A stretch of DNA of 61,301 bases, filler included, from Dugesia japonica (Eukaryota): the NCBI GenBank assembly GCA_001938525.1. It is 5 parts of 5 records of this genome, joined end to end, with 100 filler letters (N's around TTAATTAATTAA, not from the genome) between each part and the next. Parts side by side here need not be neighbours in the genome. Positions count along the whole stretch, not along the records: positions 9,343 to 31,543 come from MQRL01628734.1; 4 more parts are not named here. The stretch is one strand, 5' to 3'. The translations under genes and the position numbers were made by a program. Position 1 is the first letter of the stretch; each line of letters begins with the position of its first letter. The notes under the pieces are model-generated. The model searched no databases, was not told the origin of the DNA, and was given only the letters and a program-made list of their open reading frames with translations. Below are positions 24,332 through 50,463 of the stretch, in pieces.

Positions 24332-25413
24332 TCCGATTGATTCTAAACTTCACACATGTATATTCTATCAACATTCAACCAATACGAATATCACACACAT
24401 GTATGTATTGAAACAAAGAACAAACAATAAAAATAATGCTCGTCAACTGAATATCAACTGCTTCATGCAATGATTAAATTCAACAAGTCAAAAAGTTGTA
24501 AATGCTTTGTTTAACTTGCAGTGGCTTTGCATTTGTATTGCACTTATAATGTTTAAACAAAGAATTATCAATCAAAACATGCTAATAATCAAAAGTACCA
24601 TATTTTCAAACTATAAAATAAATACTTATCAACACTGAGTATAAAAGCAAAATGATTTTATAGGTTTTCATTATTTCAATATGAAACTAAGTATTGGATC
24701 AATATAAGATAAAGTTATGACCATAGCTGTGGATTACGGAAAGCCTACGTAATTTCATAGAATCCAAATGAAATTCCTCAGGAGACCAATATTATATTTG
24801 TTTCAAGTATTGTATTTTTGTATTTTATTATTTAATATTTTTATTTATGAACCTGTGAAGATACAACGATCTACCTATAGTTTGGTGATATCTGACATTG
24901 GCTCCAAAGACAAGAATACTTTGAATTTATTNNNNNNNNNNNNNNNNNNNNNNNNNNNNNNNNNNNNNNNNNNNNNNNNNNNNNNNNNNNNNNNNNNNNN
25001 NATTGTATTCGAAAAATCACAACAATATATGATTCAGGTTGAAATACAAGGAGTCAAGAAAAATGGAGACAACACTAACTCAATTAATAGAAAATTTAAA
25101 TCTTCAATTTGGAAAATTTCGAGACATTTTGTAAATGTTGTTATTATAATAAATGCTATATATTTATTTGTCTTTTTAACTAACTCTATTTAAATCGTAA
25201 TATTTGAAAATTAAATTTAAAAATATATAAAAATCTTATCTCTAAATAATGTCTATCANAAGAATAAAAACTCTATTTCAATTAATAACTAAAAACTTTA
25301 TGATAAATACATTACTTTTAAAACTCTATTAATTAATAATAACTACCAAATCAAATAAAAACTTTATTATAATTAACTAACAAATTGACTATATGAACAA
25401 AGAAAAACAAGTT

Positions 25414-25557
25414 TCATGACAAATAGTTTTTTAACACAAATTGATGTCTCTCAAGAAGCATATATCTACACTTGTAGCATTCACAATGGAAGCGTTGACA
25501 TAGCTCCTTATAATAATCGTCTAATACTTGTTTGTAGACTTCTTTTTGCAGGACCAT
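25414..25557 (-). CDS. Small Cys/His-rich orphan ORF (47 aa; probably the last exon of a spliced gene)
   Basis: MVLQKEVYKQVLDDYYKELCQRFHCECYKCRYMLLERHQFVLKNYLS; preceded by a tttag acceptor and a gtaata donor near 25640. Confidence 0.4.
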   Translation of the reverse strand: MVLQKEVYKQVLDDYYKELCQRFHCECYKCRYMLLERHQFVLKNYLS

Positions 25558-25932
25558 TCTTTTTCTAAATAAAATGATTGCGATAATATTTTGAAATAAA
25601 AAAATTTATAAATAATAAATAAATAAAAAATTAATATTACTTTTTTCGATAATCAGGTCCTCCTGACCATCTAAACCTGCTGATTCATCACAACTTTTTC
25701 TGTATTCTTTAATTCTTATGAGATTCATTATTTAAAATTAACAACTGATTAAAATGAAATATGTAATGTATTTTAAACAATTCTCTGTTTTACACAAATC
25801 GACCAATTAAAACCGACCAATGAAAAAAAAGTAATAATCAAACAAGGAAATGCCTTGTTATACTTGTATTCATATTGCATGACTGTGCATTCTTGTTGTG
25901 AAATTAAACAATTAAGTTATATAAATCAGAAA

Positions 25933-26342
25933 TTATATTATTATATATCCTTGGTAGTTTAAATTCTTTATACCGGGTATTATAATTTTTTCTGATAAAA
26001 ATACGTTTTCACATACAGGATCATACTTTTTAAGTCGTAATGCTTGGAAACAATTCTTGTTCAAATGAGAATTTTGTTGTTTTTGCTAATTTATACAACT
26101 TGATAACTTGTCCCAAATTTATTACAATTGTTAATGATTGCAAGCGAATATCTTTAATATCATACTTTAATTTTTCCTTTTTCTAATGGTTTTTTATATC
26201 CCATTATTCGACAATTTCCTGATTTAAAGAATATTAATGTATATTTCCTACTTTTGTCAACAAATCGAAAACAATAGAAAAACTTCATTTTGCTTGTTAA
26301 AACTTGCGACACTTTACCTTTGTAATTAATATTAACTAACAT
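25933..26342 (-). pseudogene. Divergent, intronless TATA-binding-protein (TBP)-like gene with two frameshifts
   Basis: Reconstruction gives MLVNINY...TLIFFKSGNCRIMG (repeat 1, cf. TALIFSSGKMVCTG) and IRLQSLTIVINLGQVIKLYKLA...FSFEQELFP/ALRLKKYDPVCENVFLSEKIIIPG (repeat 2, cf. YEPELFPGLIYR...IFVSGKVVLTG). Confidence 0.8.
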
Positions 26343-26467
26343 GATTAATGATTTTTTAATAAATGAGGGTGTATATATACATATTTTCCAAAAATAAATT
26401 TAATTGATTCATTTAAACAAAGACAAAATATTATTATAAACAATGCATTAAATAAAACTTTTATAAA

Positions 26468-26689
26468 ATGGAGTTGAGAAATGATGCTGTTTATCAATTT
26501 GTAGGTCCAAGCGGTAGCGGAGAAACCTTATTCGTATGCAAGTTACTAAAATCAAATTTATTTTAATCAAAATTTAACAAAATATATTGGCACAGAGGTG
26601 CAAATGAAGACCATGGGTTGACGCAATCAGAGTTTTGCAACATTAAAATGAAAATTATAAATGGATTTGATAAAAATACGGGCCACTAA
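26468..26689 (+). pseudogene. N-terminal remnant of an A32/FtsK-like packaging ATPase (Polinton type)
   Basis: MELRNDAVYQFVGPSGSGETLFVCKLLKSNLF*SKFNKIYWH: N-terminal Walker A (K>E) followed by FV..LL and I.W, with one internal stop; truncated. Not in the ORF track. Confidence 0.65.
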
Positions 26690-26809
26690 ATGATAAAGCA
26701 TTAAAGGTTTAATTCTGTTATGGAACTAATTTCTTAATTAGAAGACAACTTGAGGTATAGTTATTTAGGATATGAAAACGATTTATTAAATAAAACCATA
26801 AATATGATA

Positions 26810-27162
26810 TCACGGCCGCAGAGTTTGAGTCCCCTTATCTATCATAAGTTGCTCTAAAGGCATTTTTTCCTTTAGCCTGAGGATGTCATTTACCAGTTTA
26901 GTCTCTCGGACATGGAGGGACCGTATAACTTCTGCGAACGATTCAATCTAGGACTTCCATATGCGTTCTTGTGCGTACGATGCCTCAGCTTCCTTACATA
27001 TGGCAGTGCACTTTGCTCGGTAGCGTTTTACCTTGGCGGTAGCCACTTCAGCTTCAAATCGTCGTTTGGCCAGCCTATAGAGCTCCCAGGAAATCTCTAT
27101 ATCCTCACTGGATTCTCTCATTTTCTTGGTGGGAGCTATGTTTCGATTTAATGAAGAGTGCA
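26810..27162 (-). pseudogene. Orphan mini-gene family A, copy 2 (coiled-coil-like, ~117 aa, one internal stop)
   Basis: (A)TG-HSSLNRNIAPTKKMRESSEDIEISWELYRLAKRRFEAE...; homology to 29425-29816 continues past the stop at 26948. Confidence 0.7.
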
Positions 27163-27390
27163 CTAAAAAAAGAAATATTACAATTAGGTTTTGATTACTC
27201 TTCGCAACAAGACAATAATAACTGATACACAATCACACCAAATCGGATTGGCAATGAACAGAAATGGATGACCGGATAAAGCAACGACAAAAAAACTACA
27301 ATATTTAAACCGACCAAATGACTTCACAAGCAATATTTATTTGTGATAACTAAAATTACTAAAANGTATGATAGAGTAAAACAGAGATCC

Positions 27391-27573
27391 TCATTCTTCT
27401 TCAATATCTACCTTAGGAAATAACGGGAACATCTCGACGAAACAAATCAGGTCCGTTTTGTCACGATGTTCGATTTTCCCCTTTGTTTAAATGTGAGCCA
27501 GCAGTTGTCTCAACCTGGCTGATCTCCTTTCTTTGCATATTAATCTTAGAGTATGGATGAATCCGGCCGTCAT
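27391..27573 (-). pseudogene. Orphan mini-gene family C, copy 3 (60 aa, one internal stop)
   Basis: MTAGFIHTLRLICKERRSARLRQLLAHI*TKGKIEHRDKTDLICFVEMFPLFPKVDIEEE; paralog of 30506-30688 and 28290-28496. Not in the ORF track. Confidence 0.7.
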
Positions 27574-27852
27574 TATCTAAACTAGGCAATTATTATAAAC
27601 AAAAATATAACATCACTCAACATGGATACTTGACTGAGTGCACTAAATTCATAAAGAAAATAAATGGATACAGAAGATCTCCATAAATCTATGCTGTAAT
27701 AATACCACGAGATTTACCCACCATCCCTTTTTCAAAAGGAGACAGAATAATAATAATTTATCAGAAGAATAAAATCGAACTATATCAACTTATTATTAAA
27801 AGACACAAAAGATCAATTCAAAAAATCGAGCAACAGTAATTAGTTTCGACCA

Positions 27853-28199
27853 TTATTGTTCAGGTTCCGTGTTGGTCGTGGGATCTAAATTTTTAGCGTT
27901 TTCCACACCCGCGGGTTCCCTAACTCCCCAAAGCAAGTTGGTAATAACAGCTTGCACTGCTGGGGGTGGAGCCAGAGGCTGATAACTGAAGAGGGTTACT
28001 TGGTTACGAACCGGGCCAGTCCAATTTTGATGATTCTGCCTTTTTCCAAAAGTTTGAATACGTGCTACCATGGCCTCTATGGCGGGTAAATTGGATCGGT
28101 CTGAAAGGATACCCGGATCTCGATGGTATGGATTGATATGGCGTCGAAAAATCATATGACGCGTTTGTCGATCGTAAACTCGTTCCCATATGACATCCA
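27853..28199 (-). CDS. Orphan mini-gene family B, copy 2 (115 aa)
   Basis: Open frame, clear paralog of 30008-30364 (IFRRH.NP.HRD.GIL.D.S.LP..E..VARIQ.F...WTGP...NLLWG.REP.G.E); start is tag|TG. Confidence 0.75.
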
Positions 28200-28289
28200 C
28201 TAAAATTATAATACAAATAGACGATAATTAAAATGTTCACACAATTAGATTTAAAATCATAAAATTTATATTTTAATTCATTTAGATTT

Positions 28290-28496
28290 TTAATGCAACA
28301 GCATATCATCCGGTAGGGTCAAGAACTTCATACTCTGGATAACCGAGGGGAACATCTCCGAGATACATTGTAAATCCTTCTCATCTGGATGTTCCATCAA
28401 CTTGGGGAATAAAAGATGACCGGTCAGTCGCCGACCGCGTATGGGTTCTCGTTTTTCTAACACACAACACAACACGGTCCGTAATTCGTTACTCAT
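28290..28496 (-). CDS. Orphan mini-gene family C, copy 2 (68 aa)
   Basis: Contains EHPDEKDLQCISEMFP; acceptor lies 7 nt upstream of the ATG. Confidence 0.7.
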   Translation of the reverse strand: MSNELRTVLCCVLEKREPIRGRRLTGHLLFPKLMEHPDEKDLQCISEMFPSVIQSMKFLTLPDDMLLH

Positions 28497-28959
28497 TCCA
28501 GCACTAATATTTAATTTATAGGTTCAAGGCCAGAACAACCGCAACCAAACAAAATATGTTTCATTATAAGGTAACCCATTTAATCGCGTTGCTGATCTAG
28601 CCATCAAGCCCAGTATTATTAAGCAACAAAATATCCATTAAAATTACAGTTGTCAATGGGGTTTGATTTTGGGTGTTCCGGTTAACCCAATATAGTTACT
28701 GTGTTGGGGTTCCACCTGAATTGGATGGTAATAAAAATGTTGCCGGGGAAAAGACAGCCCTCAGGGGAACCCGTTCAAGAATTTAACCTACCGCCACTTG
28801 GGTAGGTATTCAGTTTATGGCGGTTGACCTCTCTCTTAATGGGAGGTAGACACCCATAAACCTTTGCATTCGGGTTCAATATTTTCCCTAGTATTATCAG
28901 CAAAAGAAAGAAAATACCATATTAATTATATACATTTCTTTCATAAACCGAAGAAATAT

Positions 28960-29342
28960 TTATAACAAATCCAGCGCTCCTGGATCTAACCATTGGGCCG
29001 GATCGGTCACTGAAAAGTTAAAAGCGTGGATGTCGTCATTTTCGTCCCACTGAATCCAAGTGGGGTTGCCTATTTGGTGGGAGAGATCGGTGATGTATTG
29101 TTTAAGGAATTCGATCTTTCTCAACAGCAGCTGTGTGTTTTCGGTTTCTAGGGCCTTAGTTTGGATCGCTAAATCGTTTTCTTTTTCAACGATGAAGTCT
29201 AATTTCTTTATAAGCTTGTCCCACTGGGCAAGATGTTTTAGAAGGGCCCTGCCTGTCTTACGTTTTAGATGCCTTTCGATAAGGAGTCGTCGCATAATAC
29301 GATGGCACCGTCGAAGGCTGTTAGGAAAATTGATCCGTGGCA
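28960..29342 (-). CDS. Orphan mini-gene D (127 aa; basic N-terminus, coiled coil, acidic/Trp tail)
   Basis: Open GC-rich frame; the ATG is restored by a 46-nt GT-AG intron 29343-29388 (acgA|TG). Confidence 0.7.
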
Positions 29343-29424
29343 CTAAATTTGTAAATATTAATGAGAGAACATAATTAATTAAGGGTACTCGTATGTTAAC
29401 CCAATTTTATCAAATTAGAGTAAT

Positions 29425-29816
29425 TCAGACAGAAATAAGATTTATTAACAAAGTCTTGTATCCCGGTTTGGTTTGGGTACTTTTATTGATCATGAGTGGT
29501 TCTAAGTAAGACTTTTCTTAAAGTAGCAGGATGTCGGCAACCAACTTATTTTCACGGTCCTGGCCTGACCGGATGAGCTCGGCAAATGACTCGACCTGCT
29601 TTTTCCACACCTGTTCCTGTGAGTGGGATGCTTCAGCTTCTTTCCTATACATGATACATTTTTTCTTATAACGGGATACCTTACTGTCGGCCGCAGCTAT
29701 TTCTGCCTCCCACCGACGTTTTGCGAGTCGATATAGGTCTCAAGTGAGTTCTAGATCCTCACTTATCTCTCGGAATTTCTTTGTAGGGGCTGGTGGGTGG
29801 TTGGAAGAAGAATGCA
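29425..29816 (-). pseudogene. Orphan mini-gene family A, copy 1 (two internal stops; 3' end approximate)
   Basis: (A)TG-HSSSNHPPAPTKKFREISEDLELT*DLYRLAKRRWEAEIAAADSKVSRYKKKC...; not in the ORF track. Confidence 0.7.
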
Positions 29817-30007
29817 CTAAAAGAAAGATATTTATAAAACTCAACAATAACTTTCATCATTTCTTTTTTAAATTCTAAAAGGACACAATTGTTCAAGTGC
29901 TAGACTATCCCAATTAAACCTAAAATATCTAAAGAAATTACGCAGGACATTGAACATTTATTTTAAACAGAGATAACATGAGAAGTTCACTAGTTTAGGT
30001 GCATCAT

Positions 30008-30364
30008 TCACTGAGGAGGAGTGGATGAGTCGGGTACCGGTGCGGTGTTTTCTGAGTCTTCACGGCCTGAAGGTTCCCTTATCCCCCAAAGCAGATTGGA
30101 AATAAAAGCCTGAATTGCGGGAGCTGGGGGTGTTATCGCAGTCTGGTACTTGAACGGGGTTGCTAAAGACCGGGTCGGCCCTGTCCAAGCTCTGTATTGC
30201 TGACGCTCGCTAAAATCCTGGATCCGAGCCACAATCGACTCTACTGGAGGCAGTTTTGAGCAGTCGACCAGGATGCCCGCATCCCGGTGGTGGGGATTGA
30301 AGTGCCGTCTGAAAATTATTCGACGGGTTCGCCGGTCTACTATCCGCTCACATATGGAATCCAT
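30008..30364 (-). CDS. Orphan mini-gene family B, copy 1 (118 aa)
   Basis: MDSICERIVDRRTRRIIFRRH...; acceptor tag|GA-ATG; AATAAA downstream. Confidence 0.75.
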   Translation of the reverse strand: MDSICERIVDRRTRRIIFRRHFNPHHRDAGILVDCSKLPPVESIVARIQDFSERQQYRAWTGPTRSLATPFKYQTAITPPAPAIQAFISNLLWGIREPSGREDSENTAPVPDSSTPPQ

Positions 30365-30505
30365 TCCTAAGAATAACATAGGCCTAGTAAAATTTAAATG
30401 ATACAACCTTAAGACATATTAAATGAATTATATAAGTAGTTGACACAACATTTTATTTCAGAGGGTATTTAAATAAGCACATACCCGTATATCAAAAGAA
30501 AAGAA

Positions 30506-30688
30506 TCACTCCTCGTCTAAATCTACCTTCTCGTCCATGGGAAACATCTCCGCAAAACAGCAAAGGTCTGTTTCGTCTGGATGTTCTATTTTCNCTCTGG
30601 TTATTATATGGGCTATTAACTGTCTTTGACGAACAGCTTGTCTTTGTCGTTCTAACTGTTGCAGAACTCGACACAATTCGGCGGGCAT
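30506..30688 (-). CDS. Orphan mini-gene family C, copy 1 (60 aa)
   Basis: Contains KIEHPDETDLCCFAEMFPMDEKVDLDEE; a 35-nt GT-AG intron (30690-30724) ends 1 nt before the ATG. Confidence 0.72.
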   Translation of the reverse strand: MPAELCRVLQQLERQRQAVRQRQLIAHIITRXKIEHPDETDLCCFAEMFPMDEKVDLDEE

Positions 30689-31065
30689 ACTAAATATGAG
30701 AAAAACATAATTTTAAATCGTTACTTGCGATTTAATCCCTTAAGGGAAAAAAATAGAACCATTATTACAGTCAGATGATGTTAATGGGAACCCCTATGCT
30801 TGCCCTCTGCATAAGCTAATATAAATTCAACCCTGATTATTGAGAAACTGATCCATGTGCAACATCCTGGTAATGAAGGCACCACTATCACCTTACTATT
30901 GACACTACTCGCTATAAAAAGCATTATTGGTAATCATATCAACAATCCGAGTCATAATGTTAATGCGAATATCACTTATCAGGCAAAAGGTGATGGAGAT
31001 AATAGCAATACCGAATTGTTATATCTCTAAAGACAATTTTTCCTTTAAATAGTTTTAAATATCAT

Positions 31066-31308
31066 GTGATGGGTTATACTGAACTTAACAAATTTACTTA
31101 TACAGTTAAAATAAATAATATTACTAAATCATATATTAAAGAAATATTTTCACAAATTTTTGTCCTTGACATAAAGTTTAATGAAAATATAAACTTTATA
31201 GAAATAACTTTACCTAAAGGAGTTTACATTAATCATATTTATTTTTATCATAAAGAAAATGGAGAATATGGAGAAAATTTATCCCAGTTTAAACGAAGAA
31301 GAAGATAG
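31066..31308 (+). pseudogene. 3' fragment of the Maverick fibre-like gene (second copy)
   Basis: KFTYTVKINNITKSY...NINFIEITLPK matches the repeat unit of 47431-49745; same overlap with the next gene. Confidence 0.7.
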
Positions 31309-31543
31309 AAATTGTTTTACAATTTTAGATTTAAAAAATAAACTGTCATTATCTAGAATTAGAGATTTTGAAAATGACTTGTACTTTATAAAAGATAAAA
31401 TTAAACATTATAAGAAAATACATAAAAGATGGAATAGAATTGACTCATCTATAAAATATACACAAATAAGTGTTAGTGTTATAATTGGAATTGGAGGTAT
31501 TGTATTAATTACACCAGTTGGAATTGCACTTGCTACAATTGGT
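31259..31543 (+). CDS. Maverick 2-TM protein, second copy (truncated by contig end)
   Basis: 44/50 aa identical (TILDL...YTQI) to the 46780-47441 protein. Confidence 0.85.
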
Positions 31544-31643
31544 NNNNNNNNNNNNNNNNNNNNNNNNNNNNNNNNNNNNNNNNNNNNTTAATTAATTAAN
31601 NNNNNNNNNNNNNNNNNNNNNNNNNNNNNNNNNNNNNNNNNNN
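31544..31643. other. Artificial contig-joining spacer
   Basis: 44 N + TTAATTAATTAA + 44 N. Confidence 0.97.
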
Positions 31644-31660: not shown

Positions 31661-32025
31661 ACTAGATAAATTACCATCTAGATTTTGTGGTAATGTCTCA
31701 AACATTTACTAGAAGTATATAATAATAATCTTAATATTACAAGAAGTATATTAAAAATCATAAACATTTACTAGAAGTATGCAAAATGTTTTGAAAATTT
31801 ACTAGAAGTATATAATATTTCTTGAAAATTTACTAGAAGTTGATAAAGATTTCAAAATCCTATGTCAAACAATGGGAAAATAATTCAAATATTTACTAGA
31901 AGTATAAAAAATTTTAAAAAAATTACTAGAAGTATATAAAATTATCAAAAAGTTACTAGAAGTCACTAAATGTTTTATGAAATTTATGAGAAGTTAAGGC
32001 AATCTTTCACAAATTTACCAAAAAC
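31661..32025. repeat. 31-bp-period array with conserved core TTTACTAGAAGT
   Basis: Cores (ACTAGAAGT, at most 2 mismatches) start at 31708, 31739, 31770, 31801, 31832, 31895, 31925, 31955, 31986; intervening sequence varies. Confidence 0.85.
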
Positions 32026-49754: not shown

Positions 49755-50234
49755 TTATGTGGCTTCGCTTCTGTTGCTATTTTTTAATATTAATTTATAA
49801 AGTGATAACATTTCAGATATTATAAGATCAAACTCAACATATTGCAGCTTGTATAAAAAATAAATACATAAGATTCCACATATTTCAGTGTTAAAATGTT
49901 GCACTTGAATTTTATTATAAATCTTGGTATGTGGTTCTATTTCATCTAAAGGTTTTAAACCAAAAGAATCAAAGTAATAACCTCTAGAGTAAGCAACCCA
50001 ATGTGTTCCTTTTTGATTTGAGTTTTGATAATTAAATATAATATTTCCATTTAATTCTTTAGGTGTCTTTCCGTAGGTCAGCGTAGCGCATTCATTTTTC
50101 ATATAAATCTCAAGATTTAGATCTAAAAAGTTAGCAATTGAATATAAATCAAAATTTGTTGTTGTGTTGATTCCAAATGTTTTTAAAAAATCTAATAGCG
50201 AGTAATTCAATCTCTTTTCTAATAAACTGTACAT
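49755..50234 (-). CDS. Adenain-like (C5) cysteine maturation protease
   Basis: GTHWVAY (His), YYFDSFG (Asp), VQHFNTEICGILC (Gln, Cys). Confidence 0.93.
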   Translation of the reverse strand: MYSLLEKRLNYSLLDFLKTFGINTTTNFDLYSIANFLDLNLEIYMKNECATLTYGKTPKELNGNIIFNYQNSNQKGTHWVAYSRGYYFDSFGLKPLDEIEPHTKIYNKIQVQHFNTEICGILCIYFLYKLQYVEFDLIISEMLSLYKLILKNSNRSEAT

Positions 50235-50325
50235 TTTCGTCTTTTTTCGCGCTCTTTCTTATAATCGATATTTCTGCACTTCGTTTTATTTTCGTCTTTT
50301 CGGCTCTATGTTTTTTTATAGATCT

Positions 50326-50463
50326 TTATAATCGATACTTTCGTAGATGAACTAAAATTGTAATTGTTTCTTGGTTAAAATCTATTATATTAAAATTTTC
50401 ATCCATGATATTAATCTCAAAACCATCAATATAATCAGTGTTAATTTTAGAATAAATAACTGG
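50326..50463 (-). CDS. Minor capsid (penton) protein, C-terminal 45 aa (truncated by contig end)
   Basis: PVIYSKINTDYIDGFEINIMDENFNIIDFNQETITILVHLRKYRL matches the Polinton penton C-terminal pattern Y......I..I.I.I.D.....I.F......I.LHLR. Not in the ORF track. Confidence 0.82.
   Translation of the reverse strand, partial: PVIYSKINTDYIDGFEINIMDENFNIIDFNQETITILVHLRKYRL

Follow-up and report, generated by a model that had tools for sequence, protein, structure and literature searches.

A decayed array of small genes beside Polinton-type fragments in Dugesia japonica, with start codons probably built by splicing

The gene array

The stretch of DNA analysed here (61,301 nucleotides from five joined records of the planarian Dugesia japonica, GenBank assembly GCA_001938525.1; hereafter the window) carries an array of small genes, all on the minus strand, on a contig (positions 9343-31543) that also holds broken Polinton-type genes. 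The array forms an island of 3.9 kb with a guanine-cytosine (GC) content of 0.40 (0.46 in its coding parts), against 0.26 for the AT-rich window, in agreement with a preliminary description of this DNA, which had proposed a GC-richer island of ~4 kb with eight genes in the order C-B-A-D-(?)-C-B-C-A. The eight genes represent three paralog families (A, B and C) plus a single gene, D, and the proposed order stands, but four genes are broken and the '?' slot holds a repeat, not a gene. In transcription order (starts at 30688, 30364, 29816, 29342, 28496, 28199, 27573 and 27162) the features are as follows, the slash in AG/TG marking the predicted splice junction:

30506..30688, minus strand: C1, 60 amino acids, genomic ATG 1 nt past the acceptor, one N, DLxCxxEMFP and an acidic tail
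30008..30364, minus strand: B1, 118 amino acids, intact, genomic ATG 2 nt past the acceptor; nearest good donor (30407) preceded by G
29425..29816, minus strand: A1, ~130 codons, AG/TG start, two in-frame stops (29742-29740 and 29520-29518)
28960..29342, minus strand: D, ~127 amino acids, open frame, AG/TG start, without paralog
28680..28885, plus strand: folded high-copy repeat in the '?' slot, not a gene, ends approximate (z -4.5)
28306..28496, minus strand: C2, genomic ATG 7 nt past the acceptor, frameshift near 28346, end approximate
27853..28199, minus strand: B2, 115 amino acids, open frame, AG/TG start in register with the B1 ATG, without local A-ending donor
27620..27642, minus strand: A-family-like start stub, an acceptor followed by TG and two matching codons
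27391..27573, minus strand: C3, 60 codons, genomic ATG 3 nt past the acceptor, one in-frame stop (27489-27487)
26810..27162, minus strand: A2, ~117 codons, AG/TG start, one in-frame stop (26950-26948)

The paralogs share 57% (B1/B2), 65% (A1/A2) and 53% (C1/C3) amino-acid identity. Their comparison, which the preliminary description had proposed as a check, gave ratios of nonsynonymous to synonymous differences per site (pN/pS) of 0.28 for A, 0.36 for B and 0.29 for C1/C3, with pS values of 0.76-0.97 (i.e., saturated synonymous sites), while the pairs that include C2 reached 0.42 and 0.61. The range of 0.28-0.36 in the best pairs indicates purifying selection and argues that the paralogs are selected protein genes, real and old. 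The copy at this locus is nevertheless decayed, with four in-frame stops in A1, A2 and C3 in addition to the frameshift of C2. The genes are tightly packed, the distance from a stop codon to the next acceptor being 85-277 nt in six of the seven gaps (85 nt for A1-D and 107 nt for C2-B2), and AATAAA follows five of the eight genes (C1, B1, A1, C3 and A2; p ~6e-5), as had been proposed for most of them, while ATTAAA follows C2 and neither is found after D and B2; these poly(A) sites are sequence signals only.

Four of 24 public sequencing runs were compared with the window. Contigs of two of them span the whole array, mostly at less than 95% identity and with as many as 47 contigs at one of the listed sites. 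Some connect B1 with C1, D with A1, or C1 with the right flank. Such a number of diverged contigs suggests that the cassette belongs to a dispersed family. Note that the summed depth over the array is about two to three orders below that of the flanking core-type genes, depth being here no measure of copy number.

Predicted splice acceptors and split start codons

A T-rich TAG ends 0-7 nt upstream of all eight starts, whereas the same is true of only 603 of 5755 background TG sites (10.5%), an enrichment with p ~1e-8 when the eight genes are counted and p 1e-4 when only the four families are counted. As a control, one of nine open reading frame (ORF) starts among the Polinton-type genes of the window shows this feature. 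A stricter acceptor filter kept 11 sites in 4.3 kb, five of them at gene starts; the pyrimidine-rich TAG previously claimed for every gene is thus present in each case, but the acceptors of B1, C2 and C3 fail the stricter filter. Altogether, the sequence pattern indicates that every start of the array goes with a predicted splice acceptor.

In four genes the acceptor AG is directly followed by TG in the coding frame, at 27162 (A2), 28199 (B2), 29342 (D) and 29816 (A1), exactly where the preliminary description had placed these junctions. The split phase is A/TG in all four, across three unrelated families, and never AT/G or ATG/. The junction is kept in A1 and A2 though the 40 nt on the donor side do not align between them, and two related public contigs align through the junction of D. 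The next in-frame ATG comes only at codon 15 in A2, 17 in D, 16 in B2 and 56 in A1. The stretch that precedes the first such ATG is conserved in family A (9 of 13 codons identical, 6 synonymous) and in family B (8 of 14, 5 synonymous), and the TG of B2 aligns with the ATG of B1 and with the first methionine of an outside homolog, P0001. Because these upstream codons are conserved with synonymous changes and B2 stands in register with B1 and P0001, translation in families A and B appears to begin at the split codon. Overall, it is probable that the split starts are built by splicing in one form or another.

Donors and predicted introns

The donor side is represented by the following features:

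30690..30724, minus strand: predicted 35-nt intron at the array head, donor after A; candidate end of a shared leader
30891..30897, minus strand: strong A-ending GTAAG donor (30896); second candidate leader end
29343..29388, minus strand: predicted 46-nt intron splitting the D start codon, A-ending GTA donor (29388)
27163..27198, minus strand: predicted 36-nt intron splitting the A2 start codon, A-ending GTA donor (27198)

C1, A2 and D have A-ending GTA donors at distances of 35, 36 and 46 nt, respectively, and the three that had been singled out earlier, at 30724, 27198 and 29388, were all found again with these spacings. They occur at two of the four split genes (p 0.04). For A1 there is a weak GTT donor, likewise after an A, at 29851, 35 nt upstream of the acceptor. 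B2 has no obvious local donor, as already described, both GTs located 30-60 nt above its acceptor being preceded by T and not by A; in the reading favoured below, its leader would come from upstream. Single donor tests are weak, with p 0.04 at best and p 0.17-0.24 otherwise. A search for a promoter motif shared by all local donors found none. The other introns predicted in the window measure 49, 50 and 76 nt, and planarian intron lengths are reported to peak at 45-85 nt.

Proposed completion of the start codons and alternative explanations

The architecture of the array appears real and non-random, though in a decayed copy, and the eight-gene cassette beside Polinton-type fragments is likely the cargo region of an element. 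For the completion of the four split ATGs, we tentatively favour, at somewhat less than an even chance, leaders ending in A, either mixed or shared. A short leader exon with a terminal A, at 30724 or 30896 (array head), at 29388 (before D) or at 27198 (before A2), would complete the ATG of the split genes. Each leader would be joined either to the gene it precedes or, where another acceptor is chosen and poly(A) sites are read through, to a gene further down. Leaders would thus be local for D and A2 and borrowed from upstream for B2, and full-length A, D and B2 proteins would not be made from unspliced RNA. A borrowed leader is favoured by the uniform A/TG phase in unrelated families, as a common A-ending leader predicts, and by the shift of the acceptor into the ATG between B1 and B2, whose local GTs are preceded by G or T. 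Moreover, an A-ending leader fits all eight starts. The fullest form would be an adenovirus-like unit with a single short A-ending leader. Alternative splicing would join this leader to the eight acceptors, four start codons would be completed in this way, and the choice of splice site would set which host-modulating protein is made; this form is conceivable but doubtful.

Several observations weigh against these leaders. None of the 15 joints listed, of 61, is intron-like or RNA-supported; the raw RNA runs X7 and X10 (~25% of each) reach a depth of 0-1.6 over the array genes, too low to test splicing. A contig of run X3 (record 6) crosses the predicted intron of B1 unspliced, which counts against splicing if X3 is RNA; our guess is that this run is DNA, since it covers the spacers. 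The missing donor of B2 could be decay damage, and D, which lacks a paralog, has an in-frame ATG at codon 17. An A precedes the donor in three of the four split genes versus one of the four unsplit ones (p 0.24), and the pattern of upstream ATGs is not significant. No whole element spanning the array is present in the assembly, and intact vertebrate Mavericks are reported to be intronless (PMC8097293). Finally, all five A and C genes have a GT 35-36 nt upstream of the acceptor, a spacing that speaks for purely local introns.

Strictly local micro-introns are indeed the main rival, though on balance an unlikely one: each gene would be driven by a promoter of its own and would begin with a very short exon and an intron of 35-46 nt, so that the ATG would still be spliced but nothing would be common to the genes, the donor of B2 having been lost by decay. 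The spacing of that GT, which recurs at 49 of 495 background sites, has a nominal p of 1e-4, but a p of ~0.05-0.1 by hand when local GT density and the choice of window are allowed for. In the same direction point the A-ending local donors of three of the four split genes (p 0.04), the weak alignment of the regions upstream of B1 and B2 (p 0.047), and the own poly(A) signal of five of the eight genes. Nevertheless, five of the local donors are weak (GTT or GTG), introns of 35-36 nt would fall below both the other predicted introns and the planarian peak, the local leader of A1 carries out-of-frame ATGs 6 and 9 nt upstream of its donor, and only 85 and 107 nt separate stop and next acceptor at A1-D and C2-B2. 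A start without any splicing, either at the GTG that the last G of the acceptor forms with TG or at the next ATG within the gene, had been named at the outset as a refuter, and we regard it as improbable. GTG is in frame at all four split sites, in-frame ATGs exist at codons 15, 17 and 16 of A2, D and B2, and no junction reads were found at the depth mentioned; however, this explanation leaves unaccounted for the TAG located 1-7 nt upstream of the four genes with a genomic ATG, and the downstream ATGs are missing in the paralogs A1 and B1 while the upstream codons of A and B are conserved with synonymous changes. A T at position -3 is a poor initiation context, which counts further against an unspliced start.

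Two more explanations are weaker still. We give a small chance to an operon-like unit that is resolved when a leader RNA is trans-spliced onto each acceptor. This would suit the co-oriented genes, the 85-277 nt spacing in six of seven gaps and the acceptors without strong donors, a combination that fits the operon signature described in a flatworm (PMC9851317, PMC8629364). However, if the leader ended in a complete AUG, as flatworm leaders do, none of the four split starts would be read in frame, and a stop would follow after 4-25 codons. More generally, the frame that runs from the acceptor closes after 4-29 codons in seven of the eight genes, and after 65 codons, in a non-conserved frame, at C1. 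A trans-spliced leader would have to end in A, and we know of none. It is very improbable that the AG/TG junctions result from decay alone, i.e., from ATG mutated to GTG in a dead copy with T-rich TAGs arising by chance in AT-rich spacers: half of the genes are broken and A>G ranks with the most frequent changes relative to other copies, but the same junction occurs in two paralogs with saturated synonymous sites and in a third stub, four hits on start codons are far above the level of decay, and the TAG enrichment holds (p 1e-4) even per family.

Proteins of the array

The preliminary description had presented these genes as orphan paralogs. No named homolog, host-captured or other, was found, and no array protein reaches the Pfam cut-off, but family B has one relative outside the array. 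B1 and D gave no homologs in a search at near lengths only, and a profile of family B recovered two proteins: P0001 (E-value 5e-9), located on a 512-base contig and with no name attached, and P0002 (7e-4, repetitive), which was dropped as a likely chance match. A three-member B profile found only P0001. Scans of viral contigs and metagenome contigs revealed no array-like loci. In a protein atlas, the best values were 0.76 for B1 and 0.91 for D, the latter to an unnamed cluster.

Predicted folds had a pLDDT (predicted local distance difference test) of 62 for B and 58 for D. Neither fold matched viral models at an E-value of 0.001 or below, and the best hit in PDB had a Z of 3.2 (for B), which is not proof of new folds. 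The comparison of family C with PDB sequences returned the colicin E7 immunity protein at an E-value of 0.19, which was treated as chance. The N-termini of B and D are arginine-rich, D is predicted with low confidence to consist mostly of long helices, and all C proteins end in the invariant DLxCxxEMFP with its acidic tail. These predicted features weakly suggest that the array encodes small basic, helical nuclear modulators of the host.

Genomic setting

Identical 100-nt linkers (N44, 12 bases, N44) start at 9243, 31544, 40392 and 50464, and gene order across them is not reliable. A near-intact Polinton core is found at 40637-50258, on the contig 40492-50463 (GC 0.23) and not on that of the array. 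It encodes a capsid protein (PF21738, E-value 8e-22) and an rve integrase (2e-10), together with an A32-type ATPase whose Pfam match (2e-4) lies below the cut-off; the integrase also carries a parvovirus-like phospholipase A2 domain and an N-terminal zinc finger, and the contig further holds a protease-like ORF and a three-repeat ORF. Putative polymerase fragments, assigned by their motifs, lie on a third contig without any Pfam polymerase match. On the array contig itself, the flanks are composed as follows:

26468..26692, plus strand: left flank, truncated gene with a Walker-A-like motif, candidate Polinton packaging ATPase; no Pfam match
25950..26400, minus strand: left flank, broken TBP-like gene; Pfam TBP E-value 0.048, below cut-off
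31006..31543, plus strand: right flank, broken paralogs of two ORFs of the core contig (47431-48981 and 46780-47322), by similarity

The right-flank fragments share 38% and 68% amino-acid identity with the corresponding core ORFs (81-84% at the DNA level). On the left, the gene with the Walker-A-like motif is presumably a Polinton packaging ATPase; it has a TTATAAAATG start in common with core genes. The array thus lies between Polinton-type genes, as had been claimed, insofar as broken fragments on the same contig are concerned, but the capsid, integrase and polymerase genes are beyond the linkers at 31544 and 40392. The Polinton link of the array appears real but indirect, through the fragments that share its contig. 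Of the 447 inverted pairs, the 25 longest, which were listed, include no terminal inverted repeats; the array contig ends at the linker at 31544.

The motif TTATAAAATG occurs on the plus strand at 26461, 40741 and 41835, in each case at a gene start or close by: that of the ATPase-like fragment, of the first core ORF and of the capsid gene. It lies within or at the 5' end of three control Polinton-type genes and is absent from the array, and it is possibly a late-promoter or start motif.

Comparison with known systems

The closest match is the cargo of nematode Mavericks, which is described (10.1101/2022.07.12.499685) as GC-rich, poorly conserved and 2-5 kb long, with intron-bearing genes beside an intronless core. 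The array likewise measures 3.9 kb and contrasts in GC content with the core (0.40 versus 0.23). According to the same source, nematode cargo consists of recognisable host-type enzymes (wasp proteases and krma kinases) located between the left terminal repeat and the integrase. In contrast, the array is made of eight tiny near-orphan genes in tandem, lies between the ATPase-like and core-paralog fragments, and has its predicted introns at the start codon. The unit had been presented as possibly undescribed; this stands for the split-start layout, of which the literature search outlined below found no report, but GC-rich cargo with introns is already known in the nematode elements.

Adenovirus E4 and major late units combine small ORFs on one strand, each behind an acceptor, with several poly(A) sites. 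The array resembles them in having several poly(A) signals (the AATAAA after five of eight genes), while no sequence similarity was found and a common leader is only predicted in the array. Adenoviral leaders are not known to contribute, as a rule, a single base to the start codon.

The adintovirus 'Oncoid' genes (PMC8502044) are, like those of the array, small accessory ORFs of animal Polintons, and the DLxC..E of family C with its acidic tail recalls the Rb-binding region. The Oncoid definition (LxCxE) differs from family C, in which all three genes have LxCxxE. Inspection of the alignment by eye revealed neither a serine/threonine (S/T) kinase site (S/T-x-x-D/E) after the motif, the tails of C1 and C3 being without S or T, nor a paired CxxC. 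The string 'splic' does not occur in PMC8502044.

Flatworm spliced leaders can supply a whole AUG in trans (PMC9851317), and compact co-oriented genes are a further shared trait (PMC9851317, PMC8629364). The likeness is that the DNA of the gene lacks a start codon, which a leader joined at a 5' acceptor provides, in the array by prediction; the difference is that the array needs only an A, a whole AUG being out of frame. A literature search by title or abstract start, with most subscription papers outside reach, yielded no report of splicing-split start codons in a Polinton and no account of how Polinton accessory genes are expressed.

If a spliced multi-gene unit does exist here, Polintons would use host splicing as their adenovirus relatives do, and ORF-based annotation would be expected to miss such genes, which, without a genomic ATG, remain uncalled or are called short. 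Four small protein families also join the candidate host modulators; purifying selection is seen in three of them, and one has a relative outside the array.

Other features of the window

The repeat of the '?' slot (28680-28885) displays a multi-stem fold with a z of -4.5 on the plus strand and -2.2 on the minus strand, contains no open frame and has no Rfam match. It is very deep in public contigs, like the high-copy flanks. A target-site duplication may account for the similar stretches of ~20 nt found at 28609 and 28886. The '?' sequence is probably a nested repeat, possibly of the short interspersed element or miniature inverted-repeat transposable element type, or else an element-borne RNA.

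An array of 31-nt repeats (31690-31995) at the start of the polymerase contig possibly represents Polinton subterminal repeats, and a 15-nt tandem repeat (45907-46041) lies inside a 437-codon ORF of the core contig. A host-like gene of three exons at 5982-6900 (minus strand), with a predicted signal peptide, has two predicted frame-keeping introns of 49-50 nt, which suggests that the host splices short introns. After the TBP-like gene, a small gene at 25400-25730 (minus strand) carries a predicted GT-AG intron of 76 nt (25640-25565) and a Cys/His-rich end, and is likely a second spliced gene of the element; one public contig joins the end of a C-family gene to this region.

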